Below, piece after piece: positions 28,809-29,542 of a stretch of 64,000 bases of DNA. The stretch lies in assembly GCF_003334255.1 (NCBI RefSeq), contig NZ_QOWU01000004.1, one strand, 5' to 3'. Each line of letters starts with the position of its first letter. Position 1 is the first letter of the stretch. The notes under the pieces were generated by a model, which saw only the letters and a list, made by a program, of their open reading frames with translations, did no database searches and was not told the origin of the DNA. The DNA is from Escherichia coli. GTDB lineage: Bacteria; Pseudomonadota; Gammaproteobacteria; Enterobacterales; Enterobacteriaceae. The translations under genes and the position numbers were made by a program.

Positions 28809-28902
28809 TAATCAAAAGGAAACAAAAATCATTGTAAACCATGCCATCTTTTTAGAGATTACCAGCAGAAAATTCCTTGTTCGAAATTTAGCAGTGCAAG
28901 CT

Positions 28903-29058
28903 ATGGAAAAACTTACAACGGAACTACACTCCTTAAGTGAGATGGACCGAAGACATGTAGTCTCTATTTTAGCCGAAATAGCTAATGGCTATGATGATTT
29001 TAATGACATGTTGATTTATTTAGAATTTTACCCGAATCATAAGATTCTGATATCTTAA
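28903..29058 (+). CDS. small ORF (51 aa), possibly the K-12 yrhD small protein
   Basis: ATG..TAA frame read by hand (MEKLTTELHSLSEMDRRHVVSILAEIANGYDDFNDMLIYLEFYPNHKILIS); below the ORF-track length cut-off; weak RBS. Confidence 0.3.
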   Translation: MEKLTTELHSLSEMDRRHVVSILAEIANGYDDFNDMLIYLEFYPNHKILIS

Positions 29059-29257
29059 ATAAGAAAATCCCGTTCGACGTTCTGAAAAAGAAATCATAAA
29101 ATATTAGCAGATACTTATTTCGTGACTATATCTTATCCGATGAACTTTTTTCAAAACCAGCATTTAATAATATCTTTGACGAAGATGAACGCGTCTTTGC
29201 TCAATGTATCACACAGGAATAATAATATAACACTCAACAATAATATTTATTATAATT

Positions 29258-29542
29258 ATGATTACTTATCACGACGCATTCGCGAAAGCGAACCATTACC
29301 TTGATGATGCAGATCTCCCGGTCGTCATTACTCTACATGGACGCTTTAGCCAGGGCTGGTATTTCTGTTTCGAAGCACGAGAATTTCTCGAAACTGGAGA
29401 TGAGGCCGCGCGCTTAGCTGGTAACGCACCTTTTATTATTGATAAAGACAGTGGTGAAATTCATTCTCTGGGAACGGCAAAACCGCTGGAAGAATATCTA
29501 CAGGATTACGAAATAAAAAAGGCTACCTTCGGCTTGCCCTGA
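29258..29542 (+). CDS. yrhB: small conserved protein YrhB
   Basis: 94-aa ORF recognised as YrhB. Confidence 0.8.
   Translation: MITYHDAFAKANHYLDDADLPVVITLHGRFSQGWYFCFEAREFLETGDEAARLAGNAPFIIDKDSGEIHSLGTAKPLEEYLQDYEIKKATFGLP

Follow-up and report, generated by a model that had tools for sequence, protein, structure and literature searches.

The locus between yrhA and yrhB of Escherichia coli raises the question of what a 51-codon open reading frame (ORF), lying in an AT-rich spacer behind a toxin gene and its presumed immunity gene, actually represents: a genuine small protein or gene debris. A preliminary description of the sequence had marked this ORF in a spacer of roughly 450 bp, had noted that its frame stays open back into the 3' end of yrhA, and had proposed either a remnant of orphan immunity genes or a small protein, possibly yrhD of K-12. 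We analysed the locus within the window, i.e. the whole 64-kb stretch of DNA, and collected the coordinates of its features in Table 1. The reading that we favour, with a probability of roughly 0.78, is that yrhD is a pseudogene, namely the remaining back part of an orphan immunity gene for about 80 residues, which lacks a start codon and is decaying. The alternatives discussed below (a 51-aa protein, a protein with a non-canonical start, and a chance frame or toxin fragment) are unlikely even when taken jointly.

Table 1 Features of the yhhY-ggt locus. Positions are those of the window.
Feature	Position	Strand	Remarks
yhhY	26336-26902		First in the gene order yhhY-yhhZ-yrhA-spacer-yrhB-ggt
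AT-rich island	26901-29241	+	2.34 kb, about 31% GC; holds yhhZ, yrhA, the yrhD relic and the tail
yhhZ	27139-28317	+	Hcp fused to HNH toxin; inside the AT-rich island
yrhA	28314-28808	+	Presumed immunity gene of YhhZ
Sigma-70-like site	28721-28750	+	TAGAGA-18-TATATT; inside the yrhA 3' end; 9 of 12 positions match
Stretch before the ATG	28783-28902	+	Annotated as non-coding; family helix 1 and invariant FLEF, here IVNHAIFLEIT
Full relic (putative)	about 28804-29058	+	84 codons plus stop; MAFFT, family profile, tblastx
AAGGA with ATC/ATT	28816-28833	+	AAGGA 28816-28820, 7 nt, in-frame ATC 28828 / ATT 28831; read from the sequence
yrhD ORF	28903-29058	+	51 codons plus TAA; half of helix 2, helices 3 and 4; back 60% or so of the ancestral gene
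Island tail	29059-29241	.	183 bp, between the yrhD relic and the yrhB backbone
yrhB	29258-29542	+	Intact Imm35-family gene; neighbour, outside the relic
ggt	after yrhB	minus

The ORF itself was borne out. It runs from an ATG at 28903 to a TAA at 29056-29058, in a spacer of 449 bp that extends from the stop codon of yrhA (28806-28808) to the ATG of yrhB (29258) and has a GC content of 0.29-0.33 (about 32%), compared with 0.51-0.57 in ggt and yhhY. As had been surmised, yrhD of K-12 is identical to the ORF, which PGAP names 'protein YrhD'. A GTG at 28894 in the same frame gives 54 aa in the ORF listing. The preceding in-frame stop is the TAA at 28780-28782, and the frame is indeed open from 28783, overlapping the last 26 nt of yrhA. 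An open frame of 91 codons was reached in 3.2% of 2000 dinucleotide shuffles of 28783-29260. Frame length alone is therefore weak evidence, and it is the homology that shows more than chance. The 51-aa product has no match in Pfam at E<=10, and nothing above noise was found in NCBIfam for the 51-aa product, for the 84-aa frame or for members of the family described below. When the 51-aa product was used in a word-indexed protein search, the only sequences recovered were copies from E. coli and mis-called fusions.

The family was reached only by exhaustive search with the whole open frame. We used phmmer to compare the open frame 28783-29055 with 1.8 billion representative proteins and, besides E. 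coli copies and gene-call fusions, found three proteins of about 80 aa with E values between 5.5e-4 and 8.9e-4. These alignments cover query residues 10-77; the annotated Met is residue 41, so sequence upstream of it is included. A follow-up profile search added some 50 full-length members, which are 77-91 aa long and come from Citrobacter, Iodobacter, Sphingomonas, Labrys and metagenomes, and a scan of species-representative genomes with a 10-sequence alignment yielded 18 loci, from Citrobacter, Erwinia, Brenneria, Photorhabdus, Leclercia, Lelliottia, Kosakonia, Silvania, Collimonas, Azonexus and others. By sequence, the family has no curated match in Pfam, NCBIfam or PDB. Two further candidates were rejected. 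P0026, a repetitive protein of 3000 aa, reached E=2e-9 only as a sum over 9 repeats and was judged to be a coiled-coil/repeat artefact. P0013, found in Logan assemblies (81 contigs) with 76% identity, had the appearance of a diverged YrhD, but all of its differences are of the C-to-T type (H to Y, R to W, S to F, T to I, A to V, P to L); this sequence is probably a product of assembly from bisulfite-converted or deaminated reads rather than a natural variant.

A family profile of 48 members, from which all E. coli-derived sequences were left out, was run against every stop-to-stop frame of the window. Its sole match is 28783-29055 (E=8e-16, profile positions 6-68 of 84). Taken alone, the 40 codons before the ATG (28783-28902) score 20.4 bits (E=5e-5), whereas none of 2000 shuffles scores above 8.9 bits, and the 51-aa part alone scores 23.2 bits, so that the N- and C-terminal parts are each significant. 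When the island was compared by tblastx with 20 foreign loci, matches were obtained only at 28801-29013, with E values down to 2e-10. In the MAFFT alignment the E. coli frame is colinear with the family from the Met to the shared stop position, its C-terminal residues (about 16) being colinear yet diverged. The N-terminal Met of the family aligns with CAT at 28804, and the annotated ATG aligns with a conserved internal Met in the family motif AMEQL. Family members have their own N-terminal start giving 77-91 aa, which the window frame lacks; no in-frame ATG, GTG or TTG occurs between 28783 and 28894. The window allele also departs from two invariants of the family: FLEF has become FLEI, and the D of LDxD is lost, the motif reading LVRN. 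Because the codons before the ATG match the family profile by themselves, the relic would span about 28804-29058. The true feature thus appears to be an 84-codon relic in which the annotated ATG is an internal Met codon. The relic would thus begin about 100 nt upstream of the ORF marked in the preliminary description.

The genomic neighbourhood of the family genes is informative about what the ancestral gene may have encoded. In 13-14 of the 21 distinct loci outside E. coli, the family gene abuts (within a few bases) or overlaps the end of an upstream ORF, and these upstream ORFs end in one conserved domain of about 125 aa, with the pattern KVKWVDENA.MS..YNDSA.GARSN...GQAP...FDGVDG.VMIDRK.SVVT..KAKDQALRQS...NG.TGRWEV. 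The long upstream ORFs are CdiA/filamentous haemagglutinin with TPS, Fil_haemagg_2 and PT-VENN domains; in Citrobacter, Brenneria and Photorhabdus, by contrast, a short orphan fragment of a toxin, located 3' of a cdiA gene, takes this upstream position. This layout is that of CdiA-CT/CdiI pairs and orphan modules, and from this gene neighbourhood we infer that the family consists of immunity proteins. In the remaining 7 of 21 foreign loci the family genes are orphans, either inside CDI loci (e.g. Erwinia, Iodobacter) or elsewhere. In the Citrobacter CDI locus, SymE-like toxin genes (L011 1236-1682, PF08845) are interleaved with orphan immunity genes, and the Erwinia CDI locus is apparently arranged likewise, with SymE-like genes at L023 5428-5799 and 6281-6634 (minus strand).

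By sequence, the toxin domain has no match in Pfam, NCBIfam or PDB, and the Pfam Tox-REase-5 model gives none at E<=10. Its structural model (pLDDT 85.6) predicts a Tox-REase-5-like PD-(D/E)xK fold. TseT is a PD-(D/E)xK DNase (PMC9990079), and the conserved FDG...D-R-K of the toxin domain would fit the PD-(D/E)xK catalytic pattern; the toxin of the family is accordingly presumed to be a nuclease. Among the 59 relatives of the domain, short orphan fragments and filamentous haemagglutinin predominate and E. coli proteins are absent, and no fusion to Hcp, such as a displaced ancestral Hcp-ET might have left, was present in this set. Relatives of YhhZ, YrhA or YrhB were absent from the foreign family loci. 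A search of the 64-kb window with the toxin-domain profile gave no match (best E=0.61), and what lies upstream of the relic is yrhA. The missing cognate toxin is compatible with the homology and does not exclude it, because 7 of the 21 foreign loci are orphans as well.

These results also settle the possibility that the frame arose by chance in AT-rich DNA or is a displaced fragment of a toxin C-terminus. Orphan modules often begin with toxin C-terminal fragments, and the length of the frame is only marginally unusual by the shuffle test. However, a chance frame would hardly give the unique match of the family profile in the window or the tblastx matches to the 20 foreign loci, and it is invariably the small downstream gene, not the toxin, that belongs to the matching family; the profile of the toxin itself leaves the window without a match. 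We therefore regard this explanation as already refuted by the profile, tblastx and toxin-profile results, and thus as effectively excluded.

The AlphaFold model of the family is a four-helix bundle with a pLDDT of 96.6 (helices 3-20, 28-42, 47-63 and 66-78). It gave no significant match to PDB, either by sequence or by Foldseek, TsiT chains included. On this model, a product starting at ATG 28903 is predicted to lack helix 1, with the invariant FLEF, and half of helix 2, and for this reason it would be unlikely to fold or to protect.

The island in which the relic lies has a history of its own. The first 147 residues of YhhZ match the type VI tube protein TssD/Hcp (E=3.8e-34), and its C-terminus is of HNH type. 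YhhZ has been classed as a His-Me finger nuclease (PMC5714182), and the Hcp-ET effector class to which it belongs has been reviewed together with the extra immunity genes that occur in runs after Hcp-ET genes (PMC6730261). YrhA belongs to the NCBIfam YrhA family (E=1.7e-35) and is intact in the window, with 164 aa; in K-12, yrhA is interrupted by a 768-bp IS1 (L001 3119-3886) that has duplicated a 9-bp target at window 28695-28703, and the window accordingly does not come from K-12 itself. YrhB is assigned to Pfam Imm35 (E=4.6e-23), and all loci opened contain an intact copy of its gene. A role in methionine-to-cysteine conversion has been given to the E. coli yhhZ-yrhAB cluster (PMC3309015); this seems to be a name collision with the unrelated yrhA/yrhB of Bacillus subtilis.

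Strain STEC306 has yhhY, 95 unrelated nt (L040 5906-6000) in place of window 26901-29241, and then yrhB, which is 92-94% identical. On account of this arrangement, window 26901-29241 is a 2.34-kb insertion/deletion relative to the yhhY-yrhB-ggt backbone, and yrhB lies outside the inserted island. In about 280 genomes a match to yrhB is present and a match to the spacer is absent. In PKF8 (L003) and YPE10 (L041), an IS1 shares a common left junction at window 26856, in the 3' end of yhhY, and takes the place of all sequence as far as window 29187 in one strain and 29500, with loss of yrhB, in the other; these arrangements look like IS1-mediated deletions of the island. The island tail holds a 40-codon open frame on the + strand at about 29099-29218 (frame starting at 29043), which ends in ...YILSDELFSKPAFNNIFDEDERVFAQCITQE (...VFAQCITQE) and a stop, 37 nt ahead of yrhB. 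The frame has a protein-like look, and it could be further gene debris. A tblastx comparison of the tail (29059-29241) with the foreign family loci gave no relatives below E=3.7. Its divergence between lineages is 5.5-6.5%, similar to that of the yrhD relic.

In order to judge conservation, we compared strains, as the preliminary description had proposed. Of 5426 complete E. coli genomes, 3809 contain the spacer, in each case in the chromosome. With the yrhD ORF alone as query, 2798 genomes contain it at >=99% identity to the window ORF, intact and with the yrhD gene symbol; it has 95-99% identity in 521 genomes and 90-95% in 484, and is broken in the loci opened from either class; about 1620 of the 5426 give no match, the ORF being absent. 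All six loci opened from the two divergent classes, which together comprise about 1005 genomes, had a broken ORF. PGAP labels the broken copies pseudogenes.

The lesions differ between lineages and are independent. Nine alleles were compared. The K-12-type allele of the window has the changes at family-invariant positions described above (FLEI for FLEF, LV for LD). The B2-type allele (Nissle, SF-173, EcPF40) has kept FLEF and LDRN, but its ATG has become ATA and its codon 23 has changed from TTA to TAA. In a third class (RIVM_C037791, ESC818, SCU-482) codon 39 has changed from TAT to TAG, with additional insertions in the N-terminal part in SCU-482, and the metagenome contig L015 carries a 1-nt insertion, its yhhZ and yrhA being broken too and its yrhB intact. 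Pseudogene copies of yhhZ and yrhA are found in SCU-482, SF-173 and L015. A start codon at the family N-terminus is absent from all alleles compared; the start was therefore lost before the alleles diverged, or the loss arrived with the island.

Between the window and the B2-type allele, divergence is 6.5-7.2% in yrhD, 10.6% in the spacer upstream of the ATG and 6.5% in the downstream spacer, compared with 2.2% in yrhA, 2.8% in yhhZ and 2.5% in yrhB. The divergence of yrhD is that of the spacer and 2-3 times that of the neighbouring genes, so that the relic evolves like non-coding DNA, in a neutral-like manner. Comparison of the window with L002, L004 and L017-L021 also showed discordant divergence between neighbouring segments. 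In L021, for instance, yhhZ differs by 2.9% and yrhA by 0.4%, whereas the values for L004 and L017 are 5.7% in yrhB and 1.4% in yrhA. This pattern suggests recombination mosaics across the island (27139-29542).

The allele data bear directly on the small-protein branch of the preliminary description, i.e. that yrhD encodes a genuine protein of 51 residues from ATG 28903, a shortened immunity protein that A/B1/E-type lineages retained or recruited to another role. The ORF is near-invariant in the roughly 2798 genomes with an intact copy, where it carries a PGAP gene symbol, and PGAP and UniProt treat it as a protein; a pan-genome study found zero substitutions among 68 yrhD copies (PMC3575317). 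These points speak against the relic. However, the intact copies are all at least 99% identical, so that their invariance says little about selection, and the invariance in the pan-genome study reflects sampling of one near-identical allele class rather than constraint. In principle, the near-invariance of the K-12-type allele could be constraint and not recent common ancestry. Different mutations nevertheless break the ORF in the other allele classes, and its divergence equals that of the flanking non-coding DNA. A conserved ORF under purifying selection, by which a small ORF would be recognised as a gene, is thus not what these lineages present.

Initiation and expression signals bear on the same question. 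No AGGAGG-like Shine-Dalgarno sequence could be read in 28883-28902, the 20 nt before the ATG, and initiation there may be leaderless or otherwise independent of such a sequence. In favour of the small protein, genomic SELEX in K-12 lists an RpoD site, with an H-NS flag, for yrhD (PMC3946193), and its hexamers match the sigma-70-like site just upstream of the frame (Table 1); the number of promoter-like sites in the region is not above that of shuffles. Ribosome-profiling, tagging or proteomic data on a YrhD product were not found in the literature, searchable supplements included. In addition, the ATG of the proposed 51-residue protein corresponds to an internal Met that is conserved in a family of longer proteins, and the product would lack the helices named above. 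Taken together, we consider a genuine 51-residue protein to be quite unlikely, and we infer that the E. coli relic is neither translated nor functional.

A second possibility is that an immunity protein of about 76 residues is made from the ATC at 28828 or the ATT at 28831, or by re-initiation after the yrhA stop, and protects against a Tox-REase-5-like toxin of neighbours. That orphan immunity genes guard against the toxins of non-kin is an established idea. The profile match of the frame open from 28783 includes the N-terminal helix, the 91-codon frame has stayed open despite AT-rich DNA, and the AAGGA is well spaced from the ATC; the last two points can also be held against the relic. The AAGGA with ATC/ATT is the only conceivable start for a near-full-length product that we could read from the sequence, and it is non-canonical and speculative, ATC and ATT being very poor initiators in E. 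coli. Moreover, the window allele has changed two family invariants, the frame is interrupted by a stop or a frameshift in each of the other allele classes, and no E. coli protein is among the 59 relatives of the toxin domain. This explanation is therefore highly improbable. A related conjecture, improbable as well but somewhat less so, combines elements of both alternatives: in A/B1/E-type lineages, a product of 51 aa or of about 76 aa (from ATC/ATT) would be made from the promoter-like site in the yrhA 3' end, and would have been retained either because it confers partial cross-protection from the Tox-REase-5-like toxins that other enterobacteria produce or because it has acquired a new role as a small protein. 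If this were true, an immunity gene would have been caught turning into a small-protein gene.

We therefore prefer the pseudogene reading, which may be outlined as follows. The ancestral gene would have encoded a four-helix protein of about 80 residues. In other proteobacteria the gene of this family overlaps the 3' end of a CdiA toxin gene or of an orphan toxin fragment, and its protein presumably binds and blocks the C-terminal nuclease domain of the adjoining toxin. The E. coli relic lies directly after yrhA, in the island with the Hcp-HNH toxin gene yhhZ, and a cognate toxin is absent. The 51-codon ORF would then consist of a conserved internal Met codon and the stretch behind it that is still stop-free in the K-12-type allele only. 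The orphan-immunity debris suggested by the preliminary description is thus upheld by a family located 3' of CdiA or orphan toxin domains in most foreign loci, by the missing start and by the breakage in divergent lineages; its small-protein branch is not favoured.

For about twenty years yrhD has been annotated in K-12 as an uncharacterised protein, and it can now be given an origin, most probably as a 5'-truncated immunity relic of CdiI type; its CDS would be better labelled as a pseudogene at about 28804-29058. The analysis also delimits a widespread putative immunity family, unmodelled in the databases searched, together with its partner toxin domain, and it suggests that the yhhZ island, next to its type VI toxin, has taken up a CDI-type immunity cassette. 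The relic would be ordinary gene debris, and the general view of polymorphic toxin loci is unchanged.

Among known systems, the closest comparison is with the orphan cdiI and orphan cdiA-CT/cdiI modules of CDI and Rhs/T6SS loci. As in these modules, the family genes overlap the 3' ends of CdiA or orphan toxin genes and also occur alone in arrays, and the E. coli copy lies 3' of a toxin/immunity pair without a toxin of its own. In contrast to them, the E. coli copy is startless, broken in several lineages and located in an Hcp-ET island rather than a CDI locus, and the yrhD family is one without a sequence match in Pfam, NCBIfam or PDB. The Tox-REase-5 pair TseT-TsiT of Pseudomonas aeruginosa (PA3907-PA3908) differs in that the Pfam Tox-REase-5 model misses the toxin of the family, which in the loci seen is delivered by CdiA and not by T6SS, and in that the immunity model does not match TsiT. 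With the Hcp-HNH loci of Hcp-ET1/ETI1 type (yhhZ-yrhA), the relic shares its island and its position directly after yrhA, but it is unrelated both to YrhA (YrhA/SMI1-like) and to Imm35 (yrhB).
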